This document shows, piece by piece, positions 4,436-64,000 of a stretch of DNA of 64,000 bases. The DNA is taken from NCBI GenBank assembly GCA_021823345.1, contig JAKAOF010000001.1:26062-90061 (forward strand), given 5' to 3'. This DNA is from Thermoplasmata archaeon. GTDB lineage: Archaea; Thermoplasmatota; Thermoplasmata; Lutacidiplasmatales; UBA184. The notes under the pieces were generated by a model, which was not told the DNA's origin, ran no database searches, and saw only the letters and a program-made list of their open reading frames with translations. The position numbers were made by a program, and so were the translations under genes. Position 1 is the stretch's first letter, and each line of letters starts with the position of its first letter.

Positions 4436-4439
4436 CGTC

Positions 4440-6131: not shown

Positions 6132-6136
6132 TCCCG

Positions 6137-18680: not shown

Positions 18681-18706
18681 AACTATATATCTAACCGCTA
18701 ATATAC
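18681..18706 (+). promoter_or_regulatory. AT-rich TATA region (aactatatatct...taatatac) upstream of hsp20
   Basis: The only AT-rich patch in a GC-rich intergenic region, 18–40 nt upstream of ATG 18724. It contains a second copy of the taatatac octamer. Confidence 0.45.
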
Positions 18707-18723
18707 TTTTGTTGGTTTTTACC

Positions 18724-24781: not shown

Positions 24782-26289
24782 GTCTTGAGCCTCCACTTGG
24801 GGCCGTGGGCAGAGTCCTCGACCTCGATGCCCGCCTCGGACAGCTGCTTCCGGATGCGGTCCGCCTCCGCATAGTCCTTGCGCTGCTTGGCCTGAGCCCG
24901 GCATTCGAGGGCGAGCTCCACCGCTGCGGAAAGGCTGGCGGCCGAATCGCGGGAACGGGCGGGGGAGAAGTAGCCGAGGACCGTGCTGGCGAGGTCGTAG
25001 GGGCGCAGGAGCGCCACCAGATCCTCCTCCTGGAGGGAGCGCCCCTGCGCCTCGAGCGTGGCGTGGAGCTCGGAGTTGAACGAGAAGAGTCGCGCTGTCG
25101 CTTCGCGTACGTTGAAATCGTCCAAGAGGGCGTTCATCATCTCGTCCTCGACCCGGTCTCCGGATCGGTGCTGGGGGTCGGCAGGATACAGTAGCGGGGC
25201 CCGATCGATCCACTCCCGGAAGTCCTGGAAGTACGCCCGGCCCCCTCCGGGGAGCGGCACCTCCCGCGGGAACGTCTTCGCGAGGTTTTCTTCGATCTGG
25301 GAGATCAACCGGTCGTAGCCGACCCGGAGGGTCTCGAGAGCTCGCCCCGCTTCCTCGAGCGATTCCGGCCCGAGGTAGTCGAGAGGGCTCCGGTAGTGTG
25401 CGCTGAGGAGGAAGTAGCGGACGACCTCGGGGCGGAACTGACGTAGGGTCTCGTCGAGGCCGACAACGTTCCCGAGGGACTTCGACATCTTCTCGCCCCG
25501 CATGTTCAGCATGTTGTGATGCATCCAGATCGAGGCCAGCGGCGACTTCCCGGTCGCCCCCTCGGCCTGCGCGATCTCGGCCTCGTGGTGAGGGAACTTG
25601 AGCTCCATGCCTCCGCCGTGGATGTCGTAGCGGCTCCCGAGGACGTTCACCGCGATGGCCGTGTCCTCGATGTGCCAGCCCGGACGGCCATCCCCCCACG
25701 GGCTCTTCCACCGGGGCCCCAGCTTCTCGCCCTTCCACAGGGCAAAGTCCTCGGGGGCTCGCTTGCGGGGGTTCACCTCGATGCGCACCCCGGGCTCCAG
25801 CATCTCCATCCGTTGCCCGGAGAGCGCGCCGAAGGCGGGAAAGCTCCCCACGTCGTAGTACACATCGCCGTCGGAGGCATAGGCGTGGCCCTTCGCGATG
25901 AGCGTCTCGATCTGCTCGAGGATCTCGTTCACGTAGTCGGTGCATCGGGCGTAGAAGTTGACCGAGTCCACGTGGAGCCGTCGCATCGACTGGAGGTAGG
26001 ATTGGAAGTTGCCCTCGGAGATCGCGTTCCAGTCGCGCCCTTCCTCCGTGGCGATCTTCAGCACCTTGTCGTCGATGTCGGTGACGTTCTGGAGGTAGAA
26101 CACGTGGTAGCCGACCCGGCGCAGGAGCTTCGCCACCACGTCGTAGACGACCGCGGCCCGGCCATGCCCGATGTGGGAGGGCTTGTACGGGGTGATCCCG
26201 CAGACGAACATCGAGACCCGGGGGGGGCTCAGGGGTGCTAGCTGCTCGATCTTCCCGCCCAGAGTGTTGTGGATGCGGACCGCTCTCAT
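24778..26289 (-). CDS. cysS: cysteinyl-tRNA synthetase
   Basis: HIGH (HIGHGR) and KMSKS motifs, 503 aa. Confidence 0.95.
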   Translation of the reverse strand: MRAVRIHNTLGGKIEQLAPLSPPRVSMFVCGITPYKPSHIGHGRAAVVYDVVAKLLRRVGYHVFYLQNVTDIDDKVLKIATEEGRDWNAISEGNFQSYLQSMRRLHVDSVNFYARCTDYVNEILEQIETLIAKGHAYASDGDVYYDVGSFPAFGALSGQRMEMLEPGVRIEVNPRKRAPEDFALWKGEKLGPRWKSPWGDGRPGWHIEDTAIAVNVLGSRYDIHGGGMELKFPHHEAEIAQAEGATGKSPLASIWMHHNMLNMRGEKMSKSLGNVVGLDETLRQFRPEVVRYFLLSAHYRSPLDYLGPESLEEAGRALETLRVGYDRLISQIEENLAKTFPREVPLPGGGRAYFQDFREWIDRAPLLYPADPQHRSGDRVEDEMMNALLDDFNVREATARLFSFNSELHATLEAQGRSLQEEDLVALLRPYDLASTVLGYFSPARSRDSAASLSAAVELALECRAQAKQRKDYAEADRIRKQLSEAGIEVEDSAHGPKWRLKT

Positions 26290-45654: not shown

Positions 45655-48600
45655 CTATGCGCCGGAAGTGTCCCCCGGGGGGTCCTTCGGTCCGTTGCCG
45701 GACTTGCCTTTCTTCTTGAGCCAATTCTCGAGCTCTCGCGTGATGTCCTCCACGGAGTCCGGGGACCGGGCGGCGCCCCCGGGCTGCGGGGGGCGGCTGT
45801 CCTCCGGTCCACTCCCTCCCGCACCGGGTGCCGGGGGTTTCGGGGCTTCGGACCTCGGACCCTGGTTCGTCCGAGCAACGTTCGCCGAAGCCGCCCCGTC
45901 GCTGGGGCGGGTGGAGGTCGGACCCGGATGCCGGGGTCCCTCGGTAGGAACGGTCGAGGACTCGGGGGCAGGCTCGACCTTTCGCGGTTCCCGGCTTCCG
46001 GGAACGATCTCGTAACCGCAGCGTTCGCACACGAGGTCGCTCGTCACCCTTCCTCCACAAAGCACGCACGAGAGCGGGGCGTAGCTGGTGGGGGTGGTCG
46101 GTGGTGGGGAAGGAGGAAGGGTCGCCGCGGGCGGCGGGGGAATACCTTGCGCAGAGGCACCCTCTCCGTGCATGGACGTGAGCGGCATACCGGCGGACAA
46201 GCCCTCGCTGGGAGCTGCGACGGCGGTCGGCGCATCCGTCGCTCCGGGTGGCTCTCTCACTCCCGTGTTCTCGGCGCGGTTCGACGCACCGGACCGGGCG
46301 CGACGACGCCGCAGGATCAAGATTCCGACGGCAACGATCGCACCGAGGATCGCGATCACTAGAAGATAGGGGAGATACTCCGAAATCACGGAGGGGGCTT
46401 TGTTGGGTGGAGATGATGGGGACTGGACCAGCACATGCACCGTCGCGGTGGTAGCGATCGTTCCCCGAGCATCCCGCACGTCCGCCTGGAAGGAGTAATT
46501 CCCCGGGTAATCGAGCGAGAGCGCCCACTGACTCGCATCGGGGGCCTTGGTATCGTTCGTCCCGTTGAGCAACCAGACGTACTGATAGGGGGCTTGGCCA
46601 CCCTGGAGGAGGATCGTCAGTTCAAAGCCTTCACCCGTGGTCACGGAGGTCCGGTTGGCGGAGAGCGCGACGGCGAGCGGGGGGATCGCGGGATGGACAT
46701 CGAGGGTCGTGGCGGCCGTGGTCGACTGGCCGAAGGGGTCGGTGGCCAGGATCGAGACGTTGTACATCCCCGCGCTCGAGGGGACGCACGTCAGGTGGCT
46801 CGCATTGGTGGAGGTGCATCCCGACGGGAGGCCCGAGTAGTGGTACGTATAGGGAAGGTCTCCGCCGGTCACCTGGACCGAGAGATTCGTGCCCTGGCCC
46901 AGGGTAAGATTGCTCGGAAGCGCCTGGAATGACAGGACCTTGAGCGCGGGAGGGGCCACGCCCACCAGGTCGCTGGGGGACATGGTGTGGACCGCTGGAA
47001 TCCCGACCGAAGAATCCGAGACGGAGTAGCAATAGTAGGTCGCGGAGGTCGGGGTGACATTGAGGTCCATCCCGTGGGCGCTCGCCACCAGGCTGTCCAA
47101 CCCACAGTTCGACTGGGCACCGGAGTACCACGCGAGGAGGTACGGGGGTGACCCGCCCAGGGGGCTGGCCTTCAGGAGGAGCGACTGGCCGATCGAGATC
47201 GTGGGGTTCCCGGGAGTGATGCTCCCTGCGCCGAGCGCCGGGCGGACCGTCACGATCGACCAGTTGGAGGCGACCACGGCCGGAGTGCTCGCATGGTCCG
47301 TTACGAGGTAGCAGAATTTCGCGGTGGTCGTGGGGGCGACGGTGAGGTGGGTCGAATTGCTGTTCGCCACCATGGTCCCATTGCTGCACGAGGACGGTGA
47401 CCCGCTGCTCTCGTACCATTGGAGCGACCATGGGAGGGTGCCTCCGGAGGGGGTCGCGGTCAGGTTCAAGGACTGACCCACATCGATCGACGAGTTCCCC
47501 GGAGACGGCCCGGCGGCACGTAGCGCGGGGTTGACCGTGACCAGGGACCAGGATGAATCTACGACCGACGGGGTCGTGGCACTGTCGCTGACGATGTAGC
47601 AAAAGTACGCGGTGCCCGACAGCGCCCCGGTCCACGACGCCCCGGTCGCGCCCGAAACGGGGGCCCCGGAACTACAAGGTATGGTGTTCTGCGAGCTCGA
47701 GTACCACTGGAACGAGTAGGGCAAGGTCCCTCCGGTGGGCGCCGACGAGAGGCGGACGGACTGCCCGATATCGATGGCGACGGAGGTGGGAGAAGGCGGA
47801 CCCGCAAGCAGGCTCGAGTTCACCACGGCCCACGCGGTCGGAGACTGCGACCCGGCCGAGGGACTTCCCAAGGAACTGTCCCCGACAAAGTAGCAGTAGT
47901 ATCGCGTGGCATTGAGGAGGACGGTGTAGTTCCACGCGGTTGCGCCCGTAATGACGGAATCACTTGCACAGGAGGATGAGTTGCCCGAGAACCATTGGTA
48001 GGAGTAGGGGGGGGCTCCACCGGATACGTTGGAGGAAAGGTGGAGCAGTTGTCCCGCGTCCACCTTGCCGGTCGGGGGGATCGGCGTGTTCGCCGACAGC
48101 ACCGGGTACACTTTCACCGTATCCAACGTGGAACTGCTACTCGCCCCGGCCAAGTCGGTCACGGTGTAACAGTAGGAGGTGTTCGTCGTCGGTGCGACGG
48201 ACAGGCTCGTGCCGGTCGCACCCGAGACCACGGAGTTACTGGAACAGGACGAGAGGTTCCCGGTGTACCACTGGTACGTATAGGGGGAGGTCCCTCCCGA
48301 GATGCTGACCGAGAGGGCGATGGACTGGCCGGAGTCGATCGCCGGCGTACCCGGGGTCGCGGGTCCGGCCGCCACGGGCGCGATGGTCGATCCATAGGAT
48401 GCGGTCGGCATCACGCCATTGGGGGGGTAGGCATGGACGCGCGCCCACTGCAAGGAAATGCTCGCGGTGGACAAGCTGGCGGCGACCAGGGCATAGCTCA
48501 CGTACTCGGCACTGGGAAGCGCATAGGTGGTGCTTGTCCCCGCGTACGCCACGTAATTCTCGTACCACGTCTGACTCCCCGTGGCGGTCCACGCTCCCCC

Positions 48601-49527
48601 CATGATCCCGGGGGCCAGTTGGATCGCCGGGGCCACCGGAGAAACCCCGATGGTAATGGATCCGACCCCCACGCTGCACGTGCAGCCGCCGGCATCATCG
48701 TCCAAGGTGTACCCCCCCGAGGTGCTGGAGCTCCCGTTCTGGAGGAAGAGGCCCGGATAGGGCCCCGTGACCGCCGTGACGTCGGCGTCGAAGATGATGG
48801 GGGGGGCAAAGCCCGTGGCCCAGGTGAGTCCGCCCACCGCCGCGCAACAGATCGTGAGCCCGTTGTTTTGGGTGATCGTGGGCCCCGAGACCACCACGTA
48901 ACCGGAGGAGACCGTGGTCCCGGCGAAATCATCGTAGAAATCAAAGACGGTCGCGCCGTCATCGAATGCGGCATAGGTAGCGGACAGTTGCGGCGCTTCT
49001 CCGATCGGGCCCGCGCTCGATAGCAGAAAACAAGTTGTCGGGGCGAAGTCCATCCCGACCTGGACGGTGCCGAGGGCAGGGATCGACGCCAGCCGTAGCC
49101 AGACCACGGTGCTGGTGCTCGTGTTGGTGGCTCCCGACTCGATCCAGGCCGGGATCAAGCCGCCGGAGGACAACCGGAATTCGACATTGGACCAGTTGGA
49201 GTTGATGTAGCGGGCGAAGGTCGCGGAATCGATCGTCAGTTGCTCTTGGAATGGGGAGGGGGTCGGGGCGGACTGGGAGTTCGTGATCGTGATCGGCGTC
49301 TCCTCCACCACCGGGCATGTCGACAACGGCCGAGCGTCTCGTACTTCGAACGTTCGTGTCGGTGCTCCACCGAGCGAAGGCCCTGGGCCGGCAATATCCG
49401 CGGTCGCGGCGTGCGGCGATGGCGCCGGAATATCCCACCAGGCCATGGGCGCCACGATGAGAAGGGGGGCAAGGACGATCGCCGCGCAAAGGAGAGGGAC
49501 AAGATAGGGGGTACGAACGGCGGTCAT
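45655..49527 (-). CDS. large N-glycosylated cell-surface protein: signal/TM, DUF2341-like domain, about 8 SprB/Ig-like repeats, C-terminal TM, cytoplasmic Pro-rich tail with zinc ribbon
   Basis: 1290 aa. Repeats of about 90 aa carry GGxxPYxYxW...C...GATG...YCY. More than 25 NxS/T sequons. TM YLPYLLVIAILGAIVAVGILIL, then RRRRAR. Tail ends in CVLCGG...CERCG. Confidence 0.8.
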   Translation of the reverse strand: MTAVRTPYLVPLLCAAIVLAPLLIVAPMAWWDIPAPSPHAATADIAGPGPSLGGAPTRTFEVRDARPLSTCPVVEETPITITNSQSAPTPSPFQEQLTIDSATFARYINSNWSNVEFRLSSGGLIPAWIESGATNTSTSTVVWLRLASIPALGTVQVGMDFAPTTCFLLSSAGPIGEAPQLSATYAAFDDGATVFDFYDDFAGTTVSSGYVVVSGPTITQNNGLTICCAAVGGLTWATGFAPPIIFDADVTAVTGPYPGLFLQNGSSSTSGGYTLDDDAGGCTCSVGVGSITIGVSPVAPAIQLAPGIMGGAWTATGSQTWYENYVAYAGTSTTYALPSAEYVSYALVAASLSTASISLQWARVHAYPPNGVMPTASYGSTIAPVAAGPATPGTPAIDSGQSIALSVSISGGTSPYTYQWYTGNLSSCSSNSVVSGATGTSLSVAPTTNTSYCYTVTDLAGASSSSTLDTVKVYPVLSANTPIPPTGKVDAGQLLHLSSNVSGGAPPYSYQWFSGNSSSCASDSVITGATAWNYTVLLNATRYYCYFVGDSSLGSPSAGSQSPTAWAVVNSSLLAGPPSPTSVAIDIGQSVRLSSAPTGGTLPYSFQWYSSSQNTIPCSSGAPVSGATGASWTGALSGTAYFCYIVSDSATTPSVVDSSWSLVTVNPALRAAGPSPGNSSIDVGQSLNLTATPSGGTLPWSLQWYESSGSPSSCSNGTMVANSNSTHLTVAPTTTAKFCYLVTDHASTPAVVASNWSIVTVRPALGAGSITPGNPTISIGQSLLLKASPLGGSPPYLLAWYSGAQSNCGLDSLVASAHGMDLNVTPTSATYYCYSVSDSSVGIPAVHTMSPSDLVGVAPPALKVLSFQALPSNLTLGQGTNLSVQVTGGDLPYTYHYSGLPSGCTSTNASHLTCVPSSAGMYNVSILATDPFGQSTTAATTLDVHPAIPPLAVALSANRTSVTTGEGFELTILLQGGQAPYQYVWLLNGTNDTKAPDASQWALSLDYPGNYSFQADVRDARGTIATTATVHVLVQSPSSPPNKAPSVISEYLPYLLVIAILGAIVAVGILILRRRRARSGASNRAENTGVREPPGATDAPTAVAAPSEGLSAGMPLTSMHGEGASAQGIPPPPAATLPPSPPPTTPTSYAPLSCVLCGGRVTSDLVCERCGYEIVPGSREPRKVEPAPESSTVPTEGPRHPGPTSTRPSDGAASANVARTNQGPRSEAPKPPAPGAGGSGPEDSRPPQPGGAARSPDSVEDITRELENWLKKKGKSGNGPKDPPGDTSGA
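46420..48360 (-). repeat. tandem protein-coding repeats (~270 nt units) encoding SprB/Ig-like modules
   Basis: About 7–8 repeat units, visible in translation at aa ~390–1035 of the surface protein. Confidence 0.6.
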
Positions 49528-49600: not shown

Positions 49601-50743
49601 TCAGCGCGGACCGAAGAGTTCGCGGGCCGATAGCATCTTCAACGTCTCGTTCGAGCCATGGGCGAGACCCCCGGAACGGACATCCCGCCACCGCTGTTCA
49701 TGGGGGAGCTTGGAGGAGTACCCTGCACCGCCGTGGAACTGGATCGCGTGGTCGAGCACCCGCAACGCGACCGAGTTCGCCATCCACTTCGCCATCCCCG
49801 CGCGACCGGGGGTGGCCTTCGAGGTCTCGATCTCCGTGAGGACCTGCTCGAGGTAGAGTCGGGTCGCATCGAGGAGCGCTCGGTCCTCGGCCAGGGCAAA
49901 GCCGACCGCCTCGAGATCCCCGAGGCGGGTGCCGAACACCTTGCGAGAACGAGCATGGCCGATCACCTCGGTGAGCGACGACTCGGCGAGGGCGAGATAG
50001 ATCACGGCCAACATCACTCGTTCCTCGGTGAGCTCCTCGACGAGGTAGTGGAGCGCCTGTCCTTCCTCCCCGATCTGATGGGTCAACGGCACCCGGACCG
50101 CGTCATAGTGGACGGTTCCCCGCCGCATCCATCGTTCTCCCATATCGCCATGGGGCTCGACCGTGATCCCCCGGGTATCGCTCGGAACGAGGAAGGCCGT
50201 CAGTCCGCCGCCGGCTTCCTTGGGGCCCGTGCGGGCATAGACGATCGCTGCCTCCGCATCGACCGCGAACGCCGCCTCGCTCTTGGTTCCCTGGAGCACG
50301 TACTGTTCCGTGGATCCATCGGCGACCCTGTCCGCGGTCATCGAGAGCGAGCGAACGTCCGAACCCGCACCGGGTTCGGTGATCTGATTTCCCACGAGGC
50401 GCTCCCCGCGCAGCAGCGGCAAGTACCACCGCTCCCGGAGCTCCGGAGCTGCGCGCCGGAGCACCGCGCAGAACTCGGGTTGGAGGACGAGCTTGGCGAA
50501 CACGCTTCCCCCCTGAGCCGCCAGCTCTTCGAGGAGGACGGCTTCGGTGCGGAAGCTCCACCCCCGGCCGCCGAACGACGGAGGCACCCGGGGTCCCAGC
50601 CATCCCCGGGTCCCCAGGGCCCGATATTCCTCCCAGGGAAAGGCGGGCGACGCATCGAGCGCCTTGGAGCGCGGTGCCAGGTGATACTGGTTCGCGAACT
50701 CCCGCACTTCCTCGCGCAGCGTGGTGAGGTCGACCGTGGTCAT
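49601..50743 (-). CDS. acyl-CoA dehydrogenase
   Basis: 380 aa ACAD fold (NQITEPGAGSD, C-terminal GGxGY). Confidence 0.85.
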   Translation of the reverse strand: MTTVDLTTLREEVREFANQYHLAPRSKALDASPAFPWEEYRALGTRGWLGPRVPPSFGGRGWSFRTEAVLLEELAAQGGSVFAKLVLQPEFCAVLRRAAPELRERWYLPLLRGERLVGNQITEPGAGSDVRSLSMTADRVADGSTEQYVLQGTKSEAAFAVDAEAAIVYARTGPKEAGGGLTAFLVPSDTRGITVEPHGDMGERWMRRGTVHYDAVRVPLTHQIGEEGQALHYLVEELTEERVMLAVIYLALAESSLTEVIGHARSRKVFGTRLGDLEAVGFALAEDRALLDATRLYLEQVLTEIETSKATPGRAGMAKWMANSVALRVLDHAIQFHGGAGYSSKLPHEQRWRDVRSGGLAHGSNETLKMLSARELFGPR

Positions 50744-52026
50744 GGTTTTCGCGCAGGGCGCCTTCCGCCGGGGCGATAGGCGCCGATCACGTTAAGCTTC
50801 CGCAACTGGCGGGTCCGATCCGGACCGTACCCGAGGATCGAGCCCAGCACCCGCTGATTGTCCTGGCCCAGCCAGGGGGCCCCCCGCCATACCCGTCCCG
50901 GGGTGCGGGAGAGCTTCGGGACGATCCCGGCGCCACGCACCTTGCCGAGCACGGGATCCATCCAGGAAAGGAGCATCTCCCGGGACCGGTACTGGGGGTT
51001 GTCGGCGATGTCCTGCATCGTGAATATCGGGGAGAAGGCGATGTCGTGGCGCAATCCTTCCTGCTCCAACTCCGCCTGGGTCGCTCGACGGGTGAGGGCG
51101 GAGATACGACGATTGACGAGCTCCCGATGGGCGACCCGCCAGGCCATCGAGTTCCAATCCGGGGTATCCGGGAGGGACGCCCACTCGCGGAGGCGCTTCC
51201 AGCTCCGCGGGGTCGGTGCGGCGAGCACGATCCATCCATCCTTGGCCGGGAAGATCTCGTAAGGGTGGAGGCGAGGATGGGCATTGCCGTACCGGCCCCG
51301 TACCTTGCCCTGAAGGAAGTAATCGAGCGCCATGTTCTCCATCATGAGGAAGAAGACCTCGTACTGGGCGACGTCCACCACCTGGCCCTGACCGGAAGCC
51401 TGGGCGTGGACGTACGCCATGAGGGCGCCCAGCGCGGTGGCCATCCCGGTCACCAGGTCGTTGATGGCGGTACCGGACTGGGTGGGCGGTTCGGGGGGCG
51501 GCTTTCCCTGGGCGGACAGGAAACCGCTGAACGCTTGGGCGATGATGTCGTAGGACGGCCGCATCACGTAGCCCGGGTCACCCGACTGCCCAAAGCCGGA
51601 GACGTGGGCGATGACGATCTTGCGGTTCGCCTTCAGCACGGTGGCGTCGCTCAACCGGAACTTGTCGAAGGTCCCCGGGCGGGACGCGTCGATCCAGATG
51701 TCCGAACGGGCGACCAGGTCAAGGAAGACCTCGCGGCCCTCCGGTCGTGTCACGTCGAGCCCGAGCGAGAGCTTGTTCCGCGAGTACTGGACCCAGGATT
51801 CCGAGACCGTGTCCTCCGGGGGAGATCCTTGGGGGAGCATGGGGGGAAGGATCCGGGTCGGGTCGGCGTAGGGTGGGGCGAAGGGCGTGCCTTCCACGTG
51901 GATGATCTCGGCACCGAAATCACCGAGGATCGTCGCAGCCCAAGGACCCGCCACGACCCGGCCGGTGTCCAGGACCCGGATCCCGCGCAACGGTCCGAAG
52001 CGGGGTACGATCCTTCGGGACGGCAT
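50740..52026 (-). CDS. CoA-transferase family III (CaiB/BaiF/Frc-like)
   Basis: N-terminal GIRVLDTGRVVAGPWAATILGDFGAEIIHVE is the family-III signature. 4-nt overlap with the ACAD gene. Confidence 0.85.
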   Translation of the reverse strand: MPSRRIVPRFGPLRGIRVLDTGRVVAGPWAATILGDFGAEIIHVEGTPFAPPYADPTRILPPMLPQGSPPEDTVSESWVQYSRNKLSLGLDVTRPEGREVFLDLVARSDIWIDASRPGTFDKFRLSDATVLKANRKIVIAHVSGFGQSGDPGYVMRPSYDIIAQAFSGFLSAQGKPPPEPPTQSGTAINDLVTGMATALGALMAYVHAQASGQGQVVDVAQYEVFFLMMENMALDYFLQGKVRGRYGNAHPRLHPYEIFPAKDGWIVLAAPTPRSWKRLREWASLPDTPDWNSMAWRVAHRELVNRRISALTRRATQAELEQEGLRHDIAFSPIFTMQDIADNPQYRSREMLLSWMDPVLGKVRGAGIVPKLSRTPGRVWRGAPWLGQDNQRVLGSILGYGPDRTRQLRKLNVIGAYRPGGRRPARKP

Positions 52027-54682: not shown

Positions 54683-56617
54683 ATGGTGTCGAAACGATTT
54701 AGTCGGCCGGGTACCCTCCTTCCGAAAGCGCGGTCCCGCTTCGTGAGCTCCACGGTCACCTCGCTCTTCGACTACGGCGTGATCGGGAACATGCACACGG
54801 CGAGCTTGATCTCGAACCAGGGAAGCATCGACTGGGCCTGCATGCCCCGCTTCGCCTCCCCGAGCGTGTTCGGCCGTCTCCTGGATCCGAAGAAGGGGGG
54901 GTTCCAACAGGTCTCTCCGGTCGAAAGGTTCGTCTCGACCCAGTCGTACCGCGCCAGCACGAACATCCTGGAGACCTTCTTCCATCTCTCCAACGACCGC
55001 TCGCTGCAGGTGACGGACTTCATGCCGATCTTCGACACCGCCGCATCGGAAGAGGCCACGATGATCGTCCGCCGGATCGAGGCCCGGCGGGGACCGGTCC
55101 CCATCCGCACCGCCTTCGCTCCCGCCTTTGACTACGCCCAGGCCCGCACTCAGGTCGGCCGGGCGGACGGGCGCATCCTCGCCACCGCGGGTTCCTACCA
55201 GATGGCCTACGTGCCTCCTCCCGGGGAAACGCGGTTGGGCTCGGACCGAGTGGAGACGTCCTCCGAGGTGCGCCCCGGGGTCCCCGTCACGGTGGAGCTC
55301 TTCTGGGGGGGCCGCCGACCCACCGCCGACTCCGCGGAGAAGCTCCTCGACCGCACGGAGCGGTATTGGCGGCGATGGATAGCGGACGCCGTTCCTCGGA
55401 GGCAGCGCGTCTCCGCGAACGCATCCCAACGGGTGGAGCGTTCGACGTTGCTCCTCAAGCTGCTCTCGCATCGGGATACCGGTGCCTTCGTCGCCGCTCC
55501 GACCACCTCGTTGCCGGAGTGGCCGGGAGGTACCCGGAACTGGGACTATCGATATTCTTGGGTGAGGGACACGGCGATGATCGCCACGGCCCTGACTCGC
55601 CTCGGTCATGTGGGGGAGGCCCGGTCCTTCCTCCGCTGGTCCCTGGGCAGGTCCCACTTGAGAAAGGATGGCAAGATCTGCGTGCTCTACGGCGTGCACG
55701 GGGAGACCGACCTGACGGAACGCGAGCTTCCCCATCTGTCGGGCTACCTCAATTCCCGTCCGGTCCGGATCGGGAACGGCGCCGAGTACCAGTTCCAGCT
55801 CGACATCTACGGGAGCCTTCTCAGTCTGGCCTACCAGATGACCGAGGTGGACGCCCCCTTCGTCGCCCTCGAGTGGCCACAGGTCGCTCAGCTCGCCACG
55901 GACGTGATGGAGTTGTGGGGCACGCCGGACTGCGGGATATGGGAGGTCCGCGGACCTCCGGTGAATTACGTACATTCCAAGTTGATGGCCTGGGTCGCCC
56001 TGGACCGAGCGTCCCGGCTCGCCGTCCGGTTCGGGCACCGAGCGGAAGCGATGCGGTGGGGTGAGGAGGCCACGAAGGTCCGCACCGCCGTGCTCGAGCA
56101 TGGCTTCGATCGCCGCGTCAATGCGTTCGTCCAGTCCTTCGAGCATCATGTGGCGGATGCCTCCGTTCTCCGGATACCCATTGAGGGCATGCTCCCGTAC
56201 ACGGACCCGCGCGTGCTCGGGACGATCGAATACGTGCGTCGGCATCTTGCGCGGGGTCCCTTTGTCTACCGGTACCGGAGACCGGATGGCATCGCGGGTC
56301 CGGAGGGGGCCTTCCTGTTGTGCTCGTTCTGGTTGATCGAATGTCTGGCCCGGTCGGGTCAGCGGGAGCTGGCGGAAGAGTATTGGAGCGCCCTCATGGC
56401 CTCTTCCGGTCCCCTCGGGCTCTTCTCCGAGGAGTTCGATCCCAAGTCCGGCACTCCCCTCGGGAATTTCCCTCAGGCGTTCACCCATATCGGGGTCATC
56501 CAGGCGGCGCTCGCCCTGGAGCACTCCGATGCCGTCCCCGCGGGGGTCAACCCGCCCGTTCCGAAACCCTCAGCGGGCACCGGGAAGGTCCCGGCGTCAC
56601 CGCGCAGAAGTTCGTGA
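54683..56617 (+). CDS. glycoside hydrolase family 15 (glucoamylase/glucodextranase-like)
   Basis: N-terminal beta-sandwich (YGVIGNMHTASLISNQGSIDWACMPRF), then an (alpha/alpha)6 catalytic domain. Internal ATG 54683. Confidence 0.8.
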   Translation: MVSKRFSRPGTLLPKARSRFVSSTVTSLFDYGVIGNMHTASLISNQGSIDWACMPRFASPSVFGRLLDPKKGGFQQVSPVERFVSTQSYRASTNILETFFHLSNDRSLQVTDFMPIFDTAASEEATMIVRRIEARRGPVPIRTAFAPAFDYAQARTQVGRADGRILATAGSYQMAYVPPPGETRLGSDRVETSSEVRPGVPVTVELFWGGRRPTADSAEKLLDRTERYWRRWIADAVPRRQRVSANASQRVERSTLLLKLLSHRDTGAFVAAPTTSLPEWPGGTRNWDYRYSWVRDTAMIATALTRLGHVGEARSFLRWSLGRSHLRKDGKICVLYGVHGETDLTERELPHLSGYLNSRPVRIGNGAEYQFQLDIYGSLLSLAYQMTEVDAPFVALEWPQVAQLATDVMELWGTPDCGIWEVRGPPVNYVHSKLMAWVALDRASRLAVRFGHRAEAMRWGEEATKVRTAVLEHGFDRRVNAFVQSFEHHVADASVLRIPIEGMLPYTDPRVLGTIEYVRRHLARGPFVYRYRRPDGIAGPEGAFLLCSFWLIECLARSGQRELAEEYWSALMASSGPLGLFSEEFDPKSGTPLGNFPQAFTHIGVIQAALALEHSDAVPAGVNPPVPKPSAGTGKVPASPRRSS

Positions 56618-56791: not shown

Positions 56792-58807
56792 ATGACCGAG
56801 CTCGACGAACTCTGCGTCAACACGCTCCGATTCCTCTCCGTGGACATGGTCGAGAAGGCGAAGTCCGGACATCCGGGGCTTCCGCTCGGAGCCGCTCCGA
56901 TGGCCTATGCCCTTTGGGACGGATTCCTTCGGCACAATCCCGGCAATCCCCAGTGGGCGAACCGGGATCGGTTCGTGCTTTCGGCGGGCCACGGCTCGGC
57001 GCTGCTCTACTCCCTGCTCTTCGCCACCGGATACGACCTCTCGATCGAGGACCTTCGTCAGTTCCGCCAGGTCGGTAGCAAGACGCCCGGACACCCGGAG
57101 TACCGGCACACGCCGGGGGTCGAGGCGACCACGGGTCCCTTGGGGCAAGGGTTCGCCATGGGGGTCGGGATGGCCATCGCCGAGGCCAGCCTTGCCTCCC
57201 GGTTCAACCGGGACGGGTTCCCGGTCGTCAACCATCACACGTACGGGATCGTGTCCGACGGGGATCTCATGGAAGGGATCGCCTCGGAAGCCGCATCCCT
57301 GGCCGGGCGGTTGCGGCTCGGGAAGCTGATTTACCTCTACGACGACAACCACGTTTCGCTCGAAGGGCAGACTCAGCTCTCCTTCACGGAGAACGTGGTC
57401 GAGCGCTTCCGCGCGTACGGTTGGAGCTGCATCGAGGTTCCGGACGGGAACGATCTGGGTGCGATCGCCGCTGCGATCTCCCGGGCGATCCAGGAAGGTA
57501 ACGCCCCGACCCTCATCGCCGTGCGCACCCATATCGGCTACGGGAGCCCGAGGCAGGACACCAAGGACGCCCACGGCGAACCGCTGGGGGCGGAGAACAC
57601 GCGACTGACCAAGCAGAAGTTGGGGTGGCCGACCGAGCCCCCGTTCCTCGTACCCGCGGAGGCCCTCCAACACCTGCGCCAAGCGCGCGAGCGGGGTGCT
57701 CGTCAGGAGAGCGAGTGGAACGAACTCTTCCAGGCCTATCACGTCGCCCACCCGGACCTGGCGAAGGAGCTCGACCGGATGCTCCGGGGGGAGCGTCCCG
57801 CGGGCTGGGAGAACTCGCTCCCGGATTTCTCGAAGGAAACCTCTCCCCTGGCGACCCGCGAGGCATCCGAACGGGTCTTGAACGCGCTCACCCCGGTGCT
57901 TGCGGAGATCGTGGGCGGTTCCGCGGATCTCGCCCCCTCGACCAAGACGCTCATGCGGGACGCCGGGTCCTTCCTCGCCGCCTCCTCGACCGGGCGTAAC
58001 CTACACTTCGGGGTACGGGAGAACGCGATGGCCGCGATGGTGAACGGCATGGCGCTGCATGGGGGTCTGTACCCCTATGGGGCCACCTTCCTCGTGTTCT
58101 CCGACTATGCGCGGCCCGCGCTTCGACTCGCTGCCCTGATGCGGACCCGGTCCCTGTTCATCTTCACGCACGACAGCATCTGGGTGGGCGAGGACGGACC
58201 CACGCACCAGCCGATCGAGCACGTCGCCAGCCTGCGGACCATCCCGGGCCTCACGGTCATTCGTCCCGGCGATGCCAATGAAGTGTCGGCCGCCTGGAAG
58301 GTGGCGGTCGAGCAGTCCGGCCCGGTCGTTTTCGCCCTCACCCGGCAGAAGCTTCCCATCCTGAAGGAGGTGGCCGGGCGTGCCATGGAGGGGGTCGGAC
58401 GCGGAGCCTACATCGTCTCGGACTCGGATCGAGAGGTCCCTCGGGTCGTCCTCATCGCGACCGGTTCTGAACTTCCCCTGGCGCTCGAGGCGAAGCAAAA
58501 GCTCGCCGAAGCGGGACACGGGGTTCGGGTGGTCTCCATGCCTTCCTGGGAGCTCTTCGAGCGGCAGGATTCGGTTTACCGCAAGTCGATCCTTCCGGAC
58601 TCTGTGCCGCGGGTCTCGGTGGAGGCCGGGACCACGTTCGGTTGGTCGCGCTACGTCGGGGACACGGGGCTCTCGATCGGGATCGACCGGTTCGGGATCT
58701 CAGGGCCGGGCCCGGGAGTTGCCTTAGCCCTTGGCCTCACCGCGGACCGGGTGGTGGAGACGGTGCGCTCGATCTTGCAGGGGTCGCGGGGCGCCGGCTC
58801 CTCGTAA
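56792..58807 (+). CDS. tkt: transketolase (full-length, bacterial type)
   Basis: 671 aa with TPP-binding N-terminal domain ([15 protein letters not shown]), Pyr and C-terminal domains in one polypeptide. Confidence 0.95.
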
Positions 58808-59198
58808 GAGGGTCGCGTCCCGATACCTTCCCCCATCAATTTTCCTGATCGATCTTCCAGGTTCCGTACGGAAAAATCGTACTAAGGTATACGCGGGTTC
58901 GGAAACGCTTCGGCCCACTCTTGAGGTCGACGCACCATGTCCTTTGGTGAACGTGCGACGGGTGAGGTCCAGTCTCCCTATCCCCCACCACGAGCCGATC
59001 GAACGGCATAGGGAGGGCTCTCTACCGCCTACTTATGTTGGACGTTGCCTTACCGAAGTCGATGCAAGCCCCACTTGCAGCTTCAGCCGTTGAAACCTGC
59101 CGGCAATCGGTCCGCGCAGTCCCGCTCGTTTCGGCACGACCCCGGTCCTTCTCGAGGATGGTCCAGGAGCCCGAGGGGTTCCGGGAGTAGGGTTCTTC

Positions 59199-60890
59199 AT
59201 GTCCATGGATGCCCAGGAACCCACAACCATCCTCGAGTTCGGGTCGATCCGCGCAGCGCTCGATGGCGCGACCCGGGTCGCCCTCGAAGATCGTCTCCGG
59301 GACTGGGAACAAGCGTCGGTGGGGCGTCGAGTGTGGGAAAAGGACCCCGGCCTGTGGCCCGCCGCCCCGGAGAACGACGTACGTGAGCGACTGGGGTGGC
59401 TGGAACTTCCGGCGCGCATGCCCGCGGAGGTCGCTCCCCTGCGAGATTTCAGCGAATCCGTTCGGGGGCGGGGGATCACGCGTGTCGTTCTTCTCGGGAT
59501 GGGAGGATCGAGCCTCGCTCCAGGGTTGTTACAGGACGTCTATGGCCCTGCGAAGGGATACCCTGTTCTCTCGGTGCTGGACAGCACGCATCCTCGGGCG
59601 GTCGAGACGGAGTGGCGATCGCTGGATCCACCGAATACGCTCTTTCTCGTCTCCAGCAAGTCGGGGACCACGCTCGAACCGCGCTCCTTCTTGCGCTATT
59701 TCGAGGCCGCTCTTCGCGGGGCGGGTGTGGATCCCGGCCCCCATCTTGTGGCGGTGTCCGACCCGGGAACCCCCCTCGCCACCTTGGCCCGCGAGCAGGG
59801 CTTTCTCCGAGTGTTCGAGGCATTGCCGACGGTTGGTGGCCGGTATTCCGCCCTCACTCATTTCGGACTGTTACCCGCCGCCCTCATCGGAGTGGATATC
59901 GCGGAATTGCTGAGGTCGGCGAGCGTAATGGCCGCGGCATGCGGCCCCGACGTCGGCGCGGGGGAGAATCCCGGACTCCGGCTCGGGGCGATTCTCGGTG
60001 AGTCCTATCGACTCGGTCGCGACAAGCTGACCTTCTACGGCTCCGGACGCATGCGCCGTTTTCCGGTGTGGTTGGAACAACTGGTGGCCGAAAGCACGGG
60101 CAAGCAGGGCCGGGGATTCATCCCGGTGGTCGGGGAACCGCTCTTGCCGATCGCCTCGTACCACTCGGACCGCCTGTTCGTGTACCTCGGGGACGGGTCG
60201 GCCCCGGACACCTTGTTGGCCGAGCACCTCGACCATCTCGTGGAAGCCGGGCATCCGGTACTCTGGTTGAATACCTCCGGCGATCCGGGGCTGGGGGCCG
60301 AGTTCTTCCGATGGGAAATGGCCGTGGCCGCGAGCGGGATGATCCTGGGGATCAATCCGTTCGACCAGCCGGACGTGGAGCTCGCCAAGGAGCTCGCGCG
60401 GCACGCCATGGTGGCGGCCGGGAGCGGGAGTCCGGGAGGGCTGGTCGAAGCGGTTCCCCTTTCGGCGGGAGGAGAACTCAACGAGACCCTTCGGACGTGG
60501 CAAGCTCATGCTGAGCGGGGAGACTACCTTTCGCTCCAGGTCTACTTGCCGCCCGATCCCGCCACGGATGCGGAGATAGCCGCCCTGGGAAAGATCCTCG
60601 CAGAACGTCTGCAATTGCCGCTCACGTGGGGCTACGGGCCGCGCTTCCTTCACTCCACCGGGCAATTGCACAAGGGGGGTCCGAACTCCGGTCTCTTCCT
60701 CCAGCTGGTCGACGATCCGCACGACCCCGTGCCGGTCCCGGGAGAGACCTATGGGTTCGGGGACATCATTCGGGCCCAGTCCCTGGGCGATTTCCGAGCG
60801 CTCAAGAGCAAAGGACGAAGGGTGATCCGTATCGCGCTCGGATCCGATGCCTCGGGCCTTCCGCGCCTCCGCGAGGTGCTGCTTGGCTAA
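59199..60890 (+). CDS. pgi: glucose-6-phosphate isomerase (SIS-type PGI)
   Basis: VLLGMGGSSLAP and overall PGI-superfamily pattern. 563 aa. Confidence 0.8.
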   Translation: MSMDAQEPTTILEFGSIRAALDGATRVALEDRLRDWEQASVGRRVWEKDPGLWPAAPENDVRERLGWLELPARMPAEVAPLRDFSESVRGRGITRVVLLGMGGSSLAPGLLQDVYGPAKGYPVLSVLDSTHPRAVETEWRSLDPPNTLFLVSSKSGTTLEPRSFLRYFEAALRGAGVDPGPHLVAVSDPGTPLATLAREQGFLRVFEALPTVGGRYSALTHFGLLPAALIGVDIAELLRSASVMAAACGPDVGAGENPGLRLGAILGESYRLGRDKLTFYGSGRMRRFPVWLEQLVAESTGKQGRGFIPVVGEPLLPIASYHSDRLFVYLGDGSAPDTLLAEHLDHLVEAGHPVLWLNTSGDPGLGAEFFRWEMAVAASGMILGINPFDQPDVELAKELARHAMVAAGSGSPGGLVEAVPLSAGGELNETLRTWQAHAERGDYLSLQVYLPPDPATDAEIAALGKILAERLQLPLTWGYGPRFLHSTGQLHKGGPNSGLFLQLVDDPHDPVPVPGETYGFGDIIRAQSLGDFRALKSKGRRVIRIALGSDASGLPRLREVLLG

Positions 60891-61497
60891 GATCTCCCTA
60901 CTGCTGTTGGACATCGGTGGGGTGCTGCTCTCGAACGCCTGGGACAAGGTGTCCCGTGCCGCAGGTTGCCAACGGTTCGGTCTCGACCAGGACCGTTACG
61001 AGCAGCACCACGCCCAGTTGGTGGACCGGTTCGAACGGGGACACCTGACGCTGTCTCAATATCTCGATGGGACGCTCAACGGCATCGGGCCCGGGCTCTC
61101 TCGCGCGGAGTTCACCGAGTTCATGTTCTCCGAGTCCCATCCGCTGGAAGCGGCCCTCGCGACGGCCCGGGCGCTGGCCCGTGACCGGGTGATCCCGATG
61201 GCGGCGCTGAGCAACGAGTCTCGGGAGCTCAACGAGATGCGCATCCACCGATTCCAGCTGGCGGAGATCTTCCCTCTCTTTTTCAGCTCGTGCTACACGG
61301 GCCTACGAAAACCCGAGCCGAAAGCGTTCCAACAGGTGTTGGAGATGACCCGGCGCCCGCCCGAAGAGTGTCTCTTCGTCGATGACCGGGCGGATAACGT
61401 GGCGACCGCCACGGGGCTAGGGATCCGCGCCGTCCAGCTCACCGACCCTTCGCGTCTGGGGAGGGTCCTTCAGGAATTCGGGATCGAAGGTGGATAG
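60847..61497 (+). CDS. HAD-superfamily hydrolase
   Basis: Motif I LLLDIGGVLLSN, motif IV FVDDRADN. 216 aa. 44-nt overlap with pgi suggests the real start is downstream. Confidence 0.7.
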   Translation: MPRAFRASARCCLAKISLLLLDIGGVLLSNAWDKVSRAAGCQRFGLDQDRYEQHHAQLVDRFERGHLTLSQYLDGTLNGIGPGLSRAEFTEFMFSESHPLEAALATARALARDRVIPMAALSNESRELNEMRIHRFQLAEIFPLFFSSCYTGLRKPEPKAFQQVLEMTRRPPEECLFVDDRADNVATATGLGIRAVQLTDPSRLGRVLQEFGIEGG

Positions 61498-61508
61498 GAG
61501 GCAGTACT

Positions 61509-62423
61509 ATGGAGATCGGGATGGTCGGACTGGGAAAGATGGGCGGCTACATGGTCGAGCGGCTGTTGAAGGGGGGGCACCGGGTCGTGGGCTTTGCCCG
61601 CACGGCGGCGACCGTCGACGAATGGGCGACGAAGGGCATGGTCCCTTCCCACTCGCTCGAGGAGTTGTGCCAGAAACTCGGCGCTCCGCGCATCGTGTGG
61701 CTCATGGTCCCGGCGGGGGCGGCCGTGGATGGGGTGATCGGGGAGCTCCTGCCCCAGCTGCATCCCGGCGACCTCATCGTGGACGGCGGGAACTCCTACT
61801 ATCGGGACACCTTGCGCCGTGCGGCCACGGTCGCTCGTTCCGGGATCGACTACGTGGACGTGGGGACCAGCGGCGGGATTTGGGGACTTACGGAGGGCTA
61901 CAGCATGATGGTCGGGGGCAGCGCCCCCGCGGTGGAGCGGATCCGGCCCGTCCTGGAGACCCTCGCACCGGGGAAGGACAAGGGGTGGGGTCGAGTGGGC
62001 GCGGTCGGTTCCGGCCACTTCGTCAAGATGGTCCACAACGGGATCGAGTACGGCCTCATGGAGGCCTATGCGGAGGGTTTCCAGGTCCTCGAGGCGAAGA
62101 AGGAGTTTGCGCTCGACCTCGCCCAGGTGGCCCGGATATGGCAATCCGGCAGCGTGGTGCGCTCATGGCTCTTGGATCTCACGGAGGAGATCCTGCGGGA
62201 GAACCCCGAGCTCAAGGGCGTGGCCCCCTTTGTCGTCGACTCGGGGGAAGGACGCTGGACGGTGACCGAAGGGCTCGACCTGAACGTCCCCACTCCGGTG
62301 ATCGCGCTGGCGCTGGAGGCTCGGATCCGGTCGCGGGAGGCCGACCCGTTCTCCGACAAGCTGCTCGCCATGATGCGCAACAAGTTCGGTGGGCACGACG
62401 TCCGTAAGGAGTCCTCGCCGTGA
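61509..62423 (+). CDS. gnd: 6-phosphogluconate dehydrogenase, decarboxylating (short ~300 aa form)
   Basis: GLGKMG Rossmann, GHFVKMVHNGIEYG 6PGDH signature. Confidence 0.85.
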   Translation: MEIGMVGLGKMGGYMVERLLKGGHRVVGFARTAATVDEWATKGMVPSHSLEELCQKLGAPRIVWLMVPAGAAVDGVIGELLPQLHPGDLIVDGGNSYYRDTLRRAATVARSGIDYVDVGTSGGIWGLTEGYSMMVGGSAPAVERIRPVLETLAPGKDKGWGRVGAVGSGHFVKMVHNGIEYGLMEAYAEGFQVLEAKKEFALDLAQVARIWQSGSVVRSWLLDLTEEILRENPELKGVAPFVVDSGEGRWTVTEGLDLNVPTPVIALALEARIRSREADPFSDKLLAMMRNKFGGHDVRKESSP

Positions 62424-63877
62424 GTGGGACCGTGGACACCAACCCCCTCTTCGTGATCTTCGGGGCGACCGGGGATCTCATGGGGCGCAAGCTGCTCCCG
62501 GTGCTCCATACCTTCGACACCCACGGGAAGTTGCCGGGCGGTCTCCATGTGCTCGGCGTGGCCCGCAAGCCCTGGGACGACACGGCCTTCCGGGCCTTCG
62601 CCGTGGAGCACCTTCAGCGTGAGGCGCCGGGCGAGGCGGCGAACCGGGCGAACTGGTGCCAACAGCACCTGAATTACCACTCATTGGACACCACCTCGGC
62701 CGCCGGTTGGTCGGCGCTCCGGGCCCGGATCGAGGCGATCGAAAAGGAGCAGGGATTGAGCGGCAACCGGATACTTTACCTTGCCCTTCCCTCGGTCGCG
62801 TTTCCGGAGGTGGTCGAAGGGATCGGGTCCGTGGGTCTCTCCAAGAGCCCCGGGTGGACGCGGGTCGTCATCGAAAAACCCTTCGGTACCGACCTTGCCT
62901 CCGCCCAGGCGCTCAATGCCACCCTGCACCGCGTCTTCGATGAGCGGCAGGTGTACCGGATCGACCACTACCTTGGAAAGGAGACGGTCCAGAACCTGTT
63001 GGTCTTCCGTTTCGCGAACATGTTCATCGAGTCGCTCTGGAACCAGCGTTTCGTGGAGCACGTGCAGATCACGGTGGCGGAGTCCCTCGGGGTGGAAGCC
63101 CGGGCCGCGTACTACGACGGGACGGGTGCGTTGCGCGACATGGTGCAGAACCACCTGACCCAGCTGTTGACCCTGGTCGCCATGGAGGTCCCGCCGAGCT
63201 TCAGTGACAATGCGGTCCGGGACGAGAAGGTGAAGGTACTGCGCTGCATCGAGTCGATCCAACCCTCTGATGTCGTCTTCGGCCAGTACGGGGAGGGCGA
63301 GATCGACGGTAAGAAGGTGCCGGCCTATCGTTCGGAGCCCGAAGTCTCCGCCGCGTCCAACACCGAGACCTTCGTCGCCGTTTGGCTAAGGGTGGCGAAC
63401 TGGCGCTGGCACGGCGTCCCCTTCTTCCTGCGGACCGGGAAGCGGATGCCCGAGAAGTCGACCCGCATTGTCGTGACCTTCCGGTCGCCCCCGATCGCCT
63501 TCTTCCGGAGCGAACAACCTTCCGAGCGCAATCCCGACCGGGTGACGATCATCTTGCAACCCGAGGAGGGATTCGATCTCGCCTTCGAGATCAAGGTCCC
63601 TGGGGACACCCAGCGGACGCAGACGCACAAGATGCACTTCCGTTATGCCGAGGTGTTCGGACCCGTGGCGGACGCGTACGAGACCCTCCTGCTCGACGTG
63701 GTCCGCGGCGACCAGACCCTCTTCGTCCGGGCGGACGAGGTGGAGGAATCCTGGCGCCTCTTCGATCCCGTGCTTCGGGCGAAGCACCCCGTCGTTGTTT
63801 ATCCTGCGGGGACCCGCGGTCCCGAGGAGGCCGCACAACTGGTGGAGAGGGCGGGCCACGAATGGAGCGAGGAGTAG
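62420..63877 (+). CDS. zwf: glucose-6-phosphate 1-dehydrogenase
   Basis: FGATGDL, RIDHYLGKE, and the C-terminal G6PD domain. 4-nt overlap with gnd. Confidence 0.95.
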   Translation: MSGTVDTNPLFVIFGATGDLMGRKLLPVLHTFDTHGKLPGGLHVLGVARKPWDDTAFRAFAVEHLQREAPGEAANRANWCQQHLNYHSLDTTSAAGWSALRARIEAIEKEQGLSGNRILYLALPSVAFPEVVEGIGSVGLSKSPGWTRVVIEKPFGTDLASAQALNATLHRVFDERQVYRIDHYLGKETVQNLLVFRFANMFIESLWNQRFVEHVQITVAESLGVEARAAYYDGTGALRDMVQNHLTQLLTLVAMEVPPSFSDNAVRDEKVKVLRCIESIQPSDVVFGQYGEGEIDGKKVPAYRSEPEVSAASNTETFVAVWLRVANWRWHGVPFFLRTGKRMPEKSTRIVVTFRSPPIAFFRSEQPSERNPDRVTIILQPEEGFDLAFEIKVPGDTQRTQTHKMHFRYAEVFGPVADAYETLLLDVVRGDQTLFVRADEVEESWRLFDPVLRAKHPVVVYPAGTRGPEEAAQLVERAGHEWSEE

Positions 63878-64000
63878 TCCCCGAGGTCGAGGTATTCGCC
63901 GACCCTGCCCAGTTGGCCGAGGCGCTCGCCCGGGATGTGGTAGCGGCCTCGCGACAGGCGGTCGAAGAGCGGGGGCGATTTCTCCTGGTCCTGTCCGGAG
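63862..64000 (+). CDS. pgl: 6-phosphogluconolactonase (5' partial, runs off window)
   Basis: MERGVV...FLLVLSG(G) matches the Pgl/NagB N-terminus. Overlaps the zwf stop. Not in the ORF track because it is truncated. Confidence 0.55.
   Translation, partial: MERGVVPEVEVFADPAQLAEALARDVVAASRQAVEERGRFLLVLSG

Follow-up and report, generated by a model that had tools for sequence, protein, structure and literature searches.

A bacterial-type oxidative pentose-phosphate operon, probably acquired as a whole, in an uncultured Thermoplasmata archaeon

The 3′-terminal part of a 64,000-nucleotide stretch of DNA from an uncultured Thermoplasmata archaeon (GenBank assembly GCA_021823345.1, contig JAKAOF010000001.1; the whole stretch is in the following termed the window) carries the genes tkt, pgi, gnd, zwf and the beginning of pgl, together with a gene for a HAD-family phosphatase. 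Judged by sequence, every protein of this block is of bacterial type, and the cluster very probably represents a functional bacterial-type oxidative pentose-phosphate operon, which was imported as a whole in ancient times and later remodelled. Horizontal acquisition from bacteria, as proposed in a preliminary description of this DNA, is supported by the bacterial type of the proteins, by a gene order held in common with bacteria and by a clade that is nested among bacteria in neighbour-joining trees; it is refined here to an old, clade-wide event. The window corresponds to positions 2178–66177 of a 169,717-bp contig in ENA (L081), on which the genes past the window end were read.

Organization of the gene cluster

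Listing of open reading frames together with profile searches located tkt, pgi, the HAD gene, gnd, zwf and the start of pgl on the plus strand, at the positions and in the common orientation that had been described before. The features of the locus are, in window coordinates:

54683–56617, plus strand: GH15 trehalase/glucoamylase-like gene (TREH_N and Glyco_hydro_15; Pfam PF19291 and PF00723)
56792–58807, plus strand: tkt, single-chain bacterial-type transketolase, 671 amino acids (aa) (Transketolase_N, Transket_pyr, Transketolase_C; TIGR00232)
58808–59198, no strand: non-coding spacer between tkt and pgi, 391 bp (read from the sequence)
59199–60890, plus strand: pgi, glucose-6-phosphate isomerase of the Tal-Pgi type without the Tal half, 563 aa (Pfam PGI; C-terminal half of PRK09533)
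60883–61497, plus strand: HAD-IA family phosphatase, 204 aa (Pfam Hydrolase and HAD_2; TTG start set by the gene caller)
61509–62423, plus strand: gnd, short-chain (tetrameric-type) 6-phosphogluconate dehydrogenase (6PGDH), 304 aa (NF007161, TIGR00872)
62420–63877, plus strand: zwf, canonical glucose-6-phosphate dehydrogenase (G6PDH), 485 aa (G6PD_N and G6PD_C; TIGR00871)
63862–64000, plus strand: pgl, 6-phosphogluconolactonase, first 46 codons within the window (ATG at 63862; full 259 aa on the source contig)
L081 12219–12962, equivalent to window 64638–65381, just past the window end: short ROK-family kinase, 247 aa

From pgi onward the genes are tightly coupled. Reading of the junctions gave an overlap of 8 nt between pgi and the HAD gene, a gap of 11 nt with a GGAGG motif inside between the HAD gene and gnd, and an overlap of 4 nt (GTGA) between gnd and zwf. 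A 4-nt overlap had also been described for zwf and pgl; there the overlap is 16 nt, with pgl starting at the ATG at 63862, and position 63874 reads GTA, which is no start codon. On the source contig pgl in turn overlaps the ROK gene by 4 nt. Tight coupling is confined to this part of the locus: tkt, which had been counted as a member of a translationally coupled block, is set apart from pgi by the 391-bp spacer. Neither tRNA genes nor structured RNAs were detected in or near the block (ARAGORN; Rfam gathering thresholds).

The GH15 gene lies directly 5′ of tkt in the same direction and is itself preceded by the gene for CDC48. Upstream of the cluster lie the genes for Topo VI subunits B and A, NFACT and CDC48, and farther upstream those for Rpo11 (RNA_pol_L_2), SUI1 and ABCE1 (Fer4_RLI and two ABC domains). 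On the downstream side, the source contig continues behind the ROK gene with genes for an S-adenosylmethionine (SAM) methyltransferase and an MBL-fold hydrolase, followed by a NOG1-type GTPase gene on the opposite strand. The archaeal character of the surroundings, originally noted on the basis of Topo VI, Rpo11, aSUI1 and ABCE1, is thus found on both sides of the cluster, with NFACT, CDC48 and the NOG1-type GTPase as further members.

Encoded enzymes

The transketolase is a single polypeptide of bacterial type, as first described. Its chain of 671 aa comprises all three transketolase domains and reaches 875.9 bits on TIGR00232 (cutoff 682.25). Best matches are Thermoplasmata proteins with 62–69% identity, interleaved with proteins of Bipolaricaulia and Acidobacteriota at 61–64%. 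Zwf scores 574 bits on TIGR00871 (cutoff 400.6), with both G6PD_N and G6PD_C matched at full length. In the alignment with the solved G6PDH 9EMM (443 bits) the stretches VIEKPFG and YRIDHYLGKE are conserved, which include the active-site peptides EKPxG and RIDHYLGKE of G6PDH. The complete Pgl, as read on the source contig, obtains 221 bits on TIGR01198 (cutoff 124.45).

For the HAD phosphatase the longest open reading frame begins with an ATG at 60847, and the start chosen by the gene caller is the TTG at 60883. The closest solved relative, 3CNH (127 bits), is an uncharacterised hydrolase; of the characterised enzymes, the glucose-1-phosphatase YihX comes nearest (37 bits).

Gnd scores 437 bits on NF007161 (cutoff 271) and 368 bits on TIGR00872 (cutoff 297), and among solved structures it is matched best by the short-chain 6PGDHs 6VPB, 4E21, 8IHE and 10GW. 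The motif GHFVKMVHNGIEYG is present, and close to the C-terminus the sequence RNKFGGH (residues about 290–296) corresponds to RX2FGXH, the 6-phosphogluconate-binding motif of short-chain tetrameric 6PGDHs (PMC12871650). Within the dinucleotide-fold region Gnd reads F-A-R-T where the aligned 6VPB reads F-D-R-D, so that the Asp residues of 6VPB are absent. NADP-specific 6PGDHs are marked by an N-R-T motif, of which Gnd keeps Arg and Thr, a hint of NADP+ or dual cofactor use. Since TIGR00872 is titled NAD+-dependent, the cofactor preference of Gnd is uncertain.

The ROK protein is short for its family (31 bits on Pfam ROK) and stays below the cutoff for the polyphosphate-glucose phosphotransferase NF045942 (62 bits vs 250). 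Among solved structures the closest is the uncharacterised ‘putative kinase’ 3LM2 (270 bits), and the polyphosphate/ATP-glucomannokinase 1WOQ is matched at 38 bits. Homologues, which the Joint Genome Institute (JGI) annotates as polyphosphate glucokinase, occur in Thermoplasmata and, at 66–67% identity, in Terriglobia and Acidoferrales; the kinase is nearer to these bacterial homologues than Zwf is to any bacterium. The ROK gene may stem from another exchange with Acidobacteriota, and polyphosphate may serve as substrate of the kinase.

The product of the GH15 gene contains the GH15 and TREH_N domains and falls below the cutoff for the archaeal trehalase TreH1 NF041084 (393 bits vs 820). The same slot is also occupied in a relative whose Zwf is 80% identical (L086). 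By its domain content the GH15 gene is a candidate for a glucose-releasing step.

Relatives and conservation of gene order

Besides the window's own sequence and the one 80% relative, the top 120 matches of Zwf have identities of 58–63%, and all named entries among them are Thermoplasmata or Euryarchaeota archaeon; for many of the homologues an annotation already exists in metagenome-assembled genomes at NCBI. Among GTDB species representatives Zwf identity amounts to 60% in L001, 57% in L002 of the Hydrothermarchaeales and 55% in L011, L012, L018 and L022, and the values for Zixibacteria, TA06, Anaerolineales and Terriglobia are 55–58%. In the comparison of best matches, which had been recommended as a check of bacterial origin, the nearest relatives are Thermoplasmata (60–63%), but only by a small distance from the bacteria.

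All proteins of the window were mapped onto 80 loci to follow synteny. The order tkt-pgi-gnd-zwf-pgl was found in the Thermoplasmata loci L001, L011 and L018, in Hydrothermarchaeales (L002) and in Zixibacteria (L003), and the order pgi-HAD-gnd-zwf(-pgl) in Terriglobia/Acidobacteria (L007, L008, L009, L015), Thermoanaerobaculia (L016) and Acidimicrobiia (L045). The slot of the HAD gene between pgi and gnd in bacterial loci shows that this gene belongs to the design of the bacterial operon. Among the archaeal members of the clade, it was found only in the subclade of the window (window, L086, L087, L088). Overall, the operon occurs in several divergent Thermoplasmata with protein identities of 49–69%. 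In the flanks of L001, the Pfam search turned up no diagnostic match.

In the Hydrothermarchaeales locus (JBHICB010000028.1, 748–11198) a full-length ROK gene (325 aa) is followed by tkt, a fused tal-pgi (915 aa), gnd, zwf and pgl, and the operon adjoins a DHH-CID (GAN/Cdc45-like) gene; the contig is only 12 kb long, and mis-binning is possible.

Phylogeny

Trees were calculated by neighbour-joining from Kimura-corrected distances with 200 bootstraps and midpoint roots, using concatenated alignments of Pgi, Gnd and Zwf (1297 columns) and of Pgi, Gnd, Zwf and Pgl (1528 columns). The concatenated trees display a single Thermoplasmata clade with 99–100% bootstrap support, nested among bacteria and, on a weakly supported bacterial backbone, nearest to Acidobacteriota; the phylogenetic check that had been called for hence agrees with a bacterial origin. 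This clade is divided into a Lutacidiplasmatales type (L018, L011, L012, L022) and the group of the window (L001, L088, L087, L086 and the window itself). The latter subclade is supported at 100%, and inside it both the concatenated trees and the Pgi-only tree show L087 as sister of a pair made up of the window and L086. By the titles of GTDB loci and the names of NCBI matches, from which its lineage was assigned, the window organism is placed in a sister clade of, or on a deep branch within, the Lutacidiplasmatales/TMEG radiation. In the tree of Zwf alone, Thermoplasmata monophyly is recovered with 45% bootstrap on an unresolved backbone, which made concatenation necessary.

Monophyly of all archaea was found in none of the 200 replicates, and the Hydrothermarchaeales copy never joins the Thermoplasmata. 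This separate position suggests that the Hydrothermarchaeales operon represents a second, independent archaeal acquisition.

Probable truncation of a Tal-Pgi fusion

The Pgi of the window is related to the bifunctional transaldolase/isomerase Tal/Pgi. Its residues 16–560 align with positions 382–943 of the 949-position profile PRK09533 (577 bits); with only the Pgi part matched, the protein does not reach the cutoff of 712 bits. A complete Tal-Pgi fusion of 915 aa (1064 bits on PRK09533) is encoded directly after tkt in L087, and the window Pgi is 54% identical to its Pgi half. The Zwf of L087 has 62% identity, and this locus represents the same type of organism as L089. Tal is fused to pgi, or located directly 5′ of it, in 12 bacterial loci, in the Hydrothermarchaeales locus and in L087, and in related operons the Tal half of Tal-Pgi sits where the window has the spacer between tkt and pgi. 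Most simply, these sequences can be explained by a tal-pgi gene in the imported operon and by more than one later deletion of its Tal half, one of them in the lineage of the window. Inferences published by Sheridan et al. (2022) place a separate archaeal transaldolase in almost every Thermoplasmatota ancestor, and a fused Tal would be redundant beside it.

A Tal pseudogene within the 391-bp spacer was considered and rejected, as blastx against six Tal-Pgi proteins (word size 2, unfiltered) gave a best E-value of 0.13. The spacer also produced no alignment with the 338-bp spacer of L086. The Tal domain of L087 is without a close bacterial partner.

The full-length fusion of 915 aa is present at positions 5711–8458 of L087 and 12010–14757 of L089, in both cases with a 4-nt overlap with tkt. 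Upstream lie genes for a T2SSE ATPase, a 702-aa protein and four proteins of 166–184 aa without Pfam match, an assembly that looks type IV pilus-like. This type of protein was found on many contigs (124 index blocks).

Origin of the operon

In the favoured reading, the ancestor of the Thermoplasmata clade would have acquired a bacterial operon composed of tkt, a tal-pgi fusion, the HAD gene, gnd, zwf and pgl as a unit, the source being an operon of a kind that is frequent among Acidobacteriota and further phyla of soils and sediments. Vertical inheritance and full compositional adaptation to the host would have followed. In the lineage of the window, deletion of the Tal half would have generated the 391-bp spacer and the stand-alone Pgi, and a short ROK-family glucose kinase would have been joined 3′ of pgl, with the GH15 trehalase-like gene upstream. 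Donor and direction of the transfer are suggested by the distribution of the operon.

The bacterial type of the proteins, whose bacterial homologues are nearly as near as the archaeal ones, could be taken as a sign of a recent acquisition confined to this genome, that is, of a genomic island. This is exceedingly unlikely. Along the window the GC content is flat at about 0.65, the GC content at third codon positions (GC3) is 0.832 in the cluster compared to 0.836 ± 0.039 in 19 other genes, and relative synonymous codon usage (RSCU) of the cluster correlates with that of the other genes with r = 0.98. The comparison of base composition and codon usage that had been proposed thus brought out no deviation of the block, and a compositional island is ruled out. 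Moreover, there are no mobile-element genes or tRNA genes at the block borders, the operon is found in a number of divergent Thermoplasmata belonging to one clade, and L086 shows the same order and flanks at the syntenic site. Since GC3 and RSCU match those of the host and the operon is clade-wide, the transfer appears to be old and not specific to the source genome. The bacterial affinity of the block genes is also the single point that would speak for an artefact of assembly or binning, in which a bacterial fragment was joined to an archaeal contig, and the probability of this is practically negligible. CDC48 and the GH15 TreH-like gene upstream and the NOG1-type GTPase downstream are located on one contig together with the block, and codon usage is homogeneous. 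In L086, which stems from a separate sample, the order from the GH15 gene to NOG1 and the junctions are identical. Exact matches of Zwf, Tkt and Topo VI B lie together on two independently assembled contigs of 192,552 and 316,760 bp. Archaeal flanks on both sides, the L086 junctions and the two long assemblies argue against a chimera; the contig is neither bacterial nor chimeric, a possibility that the preliminary description had raised against itself.

A reversed direction was also weighed, in which the genes are anciently archaeal, go back by vertical descent to an early ancestor of archaea or of Thermoplasmatota, and were passed from archaea to bacteria. The large size of the archaeal clade and the restriction of the named entries among the top 120 Zwf matches to Thermoplasmata would fit such a history. 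It is nevertheless very unlikely, because the archaeal clade is just one tip group surrounded by many phyla of bacteria and because canonical Zwf is absent from cultivated archaea and from other Thermoplasmatota orders. Furthermore, published reconciliation puts the gain at the Lutacidiplasmatales ancestor, and the Hydrothermarchaeales copy is not grouped with Thermoplasmata (0/200 replicates).

Proposed pathway and physiological role

Enzyme activities, cofactor use, co-transcription and physiological role are predictions from the gene content. Glucose would be released from trehalose or an alpha-glucan by the GH15 hydrolase and phosphorylated to glucose-6-phosphate by the ROK kinase. Zwf, Pgl and the short-chain Gnd would then convert glucose-6-phosphate to ribulose-5-phosphate and CO2 with formation of two NAD(P)H, and the operon presumably serves for the generation of NADPH. 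Tkt, in concert with Tal, Rpi and Rpe encoded elsewhere, could return the carbon to fructose-6-phosphate, which Pgi would recycle to glucose-6-phosphate. The pathway had been announced as complete; this applies to the oxidative branch (zwf, pgl, gnd), whereas tal, rpi and rpe lie outside the cluster.

A mainly catabolic function is possible but somewhat doubtful. Here the pathway would act as a pentose-phosphate cycle that oxidises glucose and supplies aerobic respiration with NADH, in the manner of acetic acid bacteria. In keeping with this, Gnd is of the short-chain tetrameric type for which TIGR00872 is titled NAD+-dependent, and it has solved relatives from Gluconacetobacter and Gluconobacter, of which the G. 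oxydans enzyme was assayed with NAD+. A Pgi derived from Tal-Pgi, tkt and a glucose kinase in one locus would suit carbon recycling, and relatives of the organism are described as aerobic heterotrophs. On the other hand, F-A-R-T of Gnd keeps the Arg and Thr of N-R-T without the Asp of the F-D-R-D in 6VPB, and NF007161, which is titled NADP-dependent, outscores TIGR00872. In addition, a catabolic role and an NADPH-generating role are compatible with each other. A more far-reaching scenario, which we consider rather unlikely, is that the imported operon displaced native enzymes of the ribulose monophosphate (RuMP) pathway and the split transketolase, and together with the ROK and GH15 genes runs as a cyclic route and main path of glucose oxidation. 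If this displacement were true, these would be the first archaea with a central sugar catabolism and an NADPH supply wholly of bacterial design.

Returning to an ancient import of a functional oxidative pentose-phosphate operon, several points weigh against it. The trees are distance-based and their root is assumed by midpoint, and bootstraps of the bacterial backbone are below 50%, so that the donor phylum is not established. A pgi without Tal is also present in some bacterial operons (L003, L009, L024, L040); together with the single fused lineage (L087/L089) this means that the ancestral fused state rests on parsimony. The archaeal identity of L087/L089 is deduced from gene trees and the common pgl-ROK link, and their flanks contain the T2SSE ATPase and small proteins without matches, with no marker genes. 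In the 76 kb that were searched no gene for Tal, Rpi or Rpe turned up, and the non-oxidative return path is assumed. Finally, the cofactor of Gnd could be NAD+ instead of NADP+.

At a distance of 40 kb from the cluster, a gene for NAD kinase (NAD_kinase and NAD_kinase_C) overlaps a gene of the inositol-monophosphatase family (window 16909–18752, minus strand). The pair recalls the archaeal pairing of NAD kinase and NADP phosphatase and bears on NADP supply.

Comparison with known systems

The closest counterparts are bacterial operons with Tal-Pgi (PRK09533) in Acidobacteriota, Acidimicrobiia, Methylomirabilis and Zixibacteria (L003, L007, L015, L020, L045). They encode the same families, including a short-chain Gnd, in the same order and orientation, tkt, (tal-)pgi, HAD, gnd, zwf and pgl, with 50–66% protein identity to the window. 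The window differs from them by its archaeal host, the missing Tal half and the GH15 gene upstream; moreover, a short ROK kinase gene follows pgl in the window, whereas none is found within 10 kb in the bacterial loci.

Among archaea, the loci of Lutacidiplasmatales (TMEG) L012, L018 and L022 stem from high-GC Thermoplasmata like the window and contain pgi-gnd-zwf-pgl, in L018 also tkt, which are monophyletic with the window genes (the names of L012 and L022 follow the scheme of Sheridan et al. 2022, and L018 has Lutacidiplasmatales in its title). With a Zwf identity of 55% to these three loci, the window falls into the second subclade (L001, L086, L087, L088). Unlike the Lutacidiplasmatales type, this subclade keeps the HAD gene, and one of its lineages keeps the Tal-Pgi fusion. 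Gain of zwf, gnd, pfk and fbaB by the Lutacidiplasmatales ancestor is given in the supplementary note of Sheridan et al. (2022; PMC9287336), and their Supplementary Data 8 lists glk as present only in this ancestor. The searchable text of that paper describes neither an operon nor bacterial synteny nor a fused Tkt. Likewise, full-text literature searches brought up no account of a canonical Zwf-Pgl-Gnd operon in Thermoplasmata in any main text, and the supplementary note alone gives the gain.

Haloarchaea possess an oxidative pathway which, like that of the window, leads from glucose-6-phosphate to ribulose-5-phosphate via 6-phosphogluconate dehydrogenase (Pickl and Schonheit 2015, as cited in PMC9700705). 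According to the same citing source, their G6PDH is of a non-homologous short-chain-dehydrogenase type, in contrast to the canonical Zwf and Pgl of the window. No gene for such a G6PDH is present in the window operon. In typical archaea the RuMP pathway (Hps-Phi) and a split transketolase serve the same purpose, the supply of pentose phosphates, whereas the Tkt of the window is a single chain. Neither an Hps nor a Phi gene was seen in the regions examined (about 76 kb of contig).

Many archaea are without both branches of the pentose-phosphate pathway, with haloarchaea as an exception for the oxidative one, and for Thermoplasmatota only the non-oxidative branch was predicted (PMC9700705, 2022). 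A survey of 83 archaeal genera with finished genomes recorded canonical G6PDH in 0% of them (PMC4518329, 2015). More recently the oxidative phase was described as not widespread in archaea; a split Tkt was counted in 441 archaeal assemblies, with fused forms confined to a few DPANN and Thorarchaeota (PMC11237513, 2024). Against these reviews, in which archaea lack the oxidative pathway save for haloarchaea with another first enzyme, the locus shows an exception: widespread uncultured Thermoplasmata of soil and groundwater carry a complete canonical oxidative branch as one operon. It would be a clean example of an inter-domain transfer at the level of an operon, accompanying a shift to aerobic sugar heterotrophy. 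Its value is illustrative and not surprising, as gain of zwf and gnd had already been inferred for the neighbouring order. Added here are the operon-level match to bacteria including the HAD gene and Tal-Pgi, the probable truncation of Tal-Pgi, the appended kinase and the apparently separate case of the Hydrothermarchaeales.

Further genes of the window

Among the remaining genes of the window, a thiolase-like protein with an OB-fold partner (28921–30893, minus strand) and an acyl-CoA dehydrogenase with a CoA transferase (49601–52026, minus strand) fit the capacity for beta-oxidation reported for Lutacidiplasmatales. The ABCE1 gene (20631–22412) adjoins a gene for an AlkZ-like DNA glycosylase (19318–20550, minus strand), and seryl-tRNA synthetase (22437–23732) and cysteinyl-tRNA synthetase (24778–26289) are encoded nearby.

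Two large proteins are encoded on the minus strand. One of 1479 aa consists of TPR repeats nearly throughout (32400–36839), and the other of roughly 1218–1290 aa, with faint matches to DUF2341 and SprB repeats (45655–49311), is probably a surface protein.

An operon for the potassium-transporting ATPase KdpFABC is located at about 1772–6250 (minus strand). Coordinates of the ENA contig give broken frames for kdpB, kdpC and a GH43 gene, and the kdpB frame of the window ends at 2312, not at 2360, that is 48 nt further. The window therefore probably derives from an assembly that differs slightly from the ENA contig in the kdp stretch.

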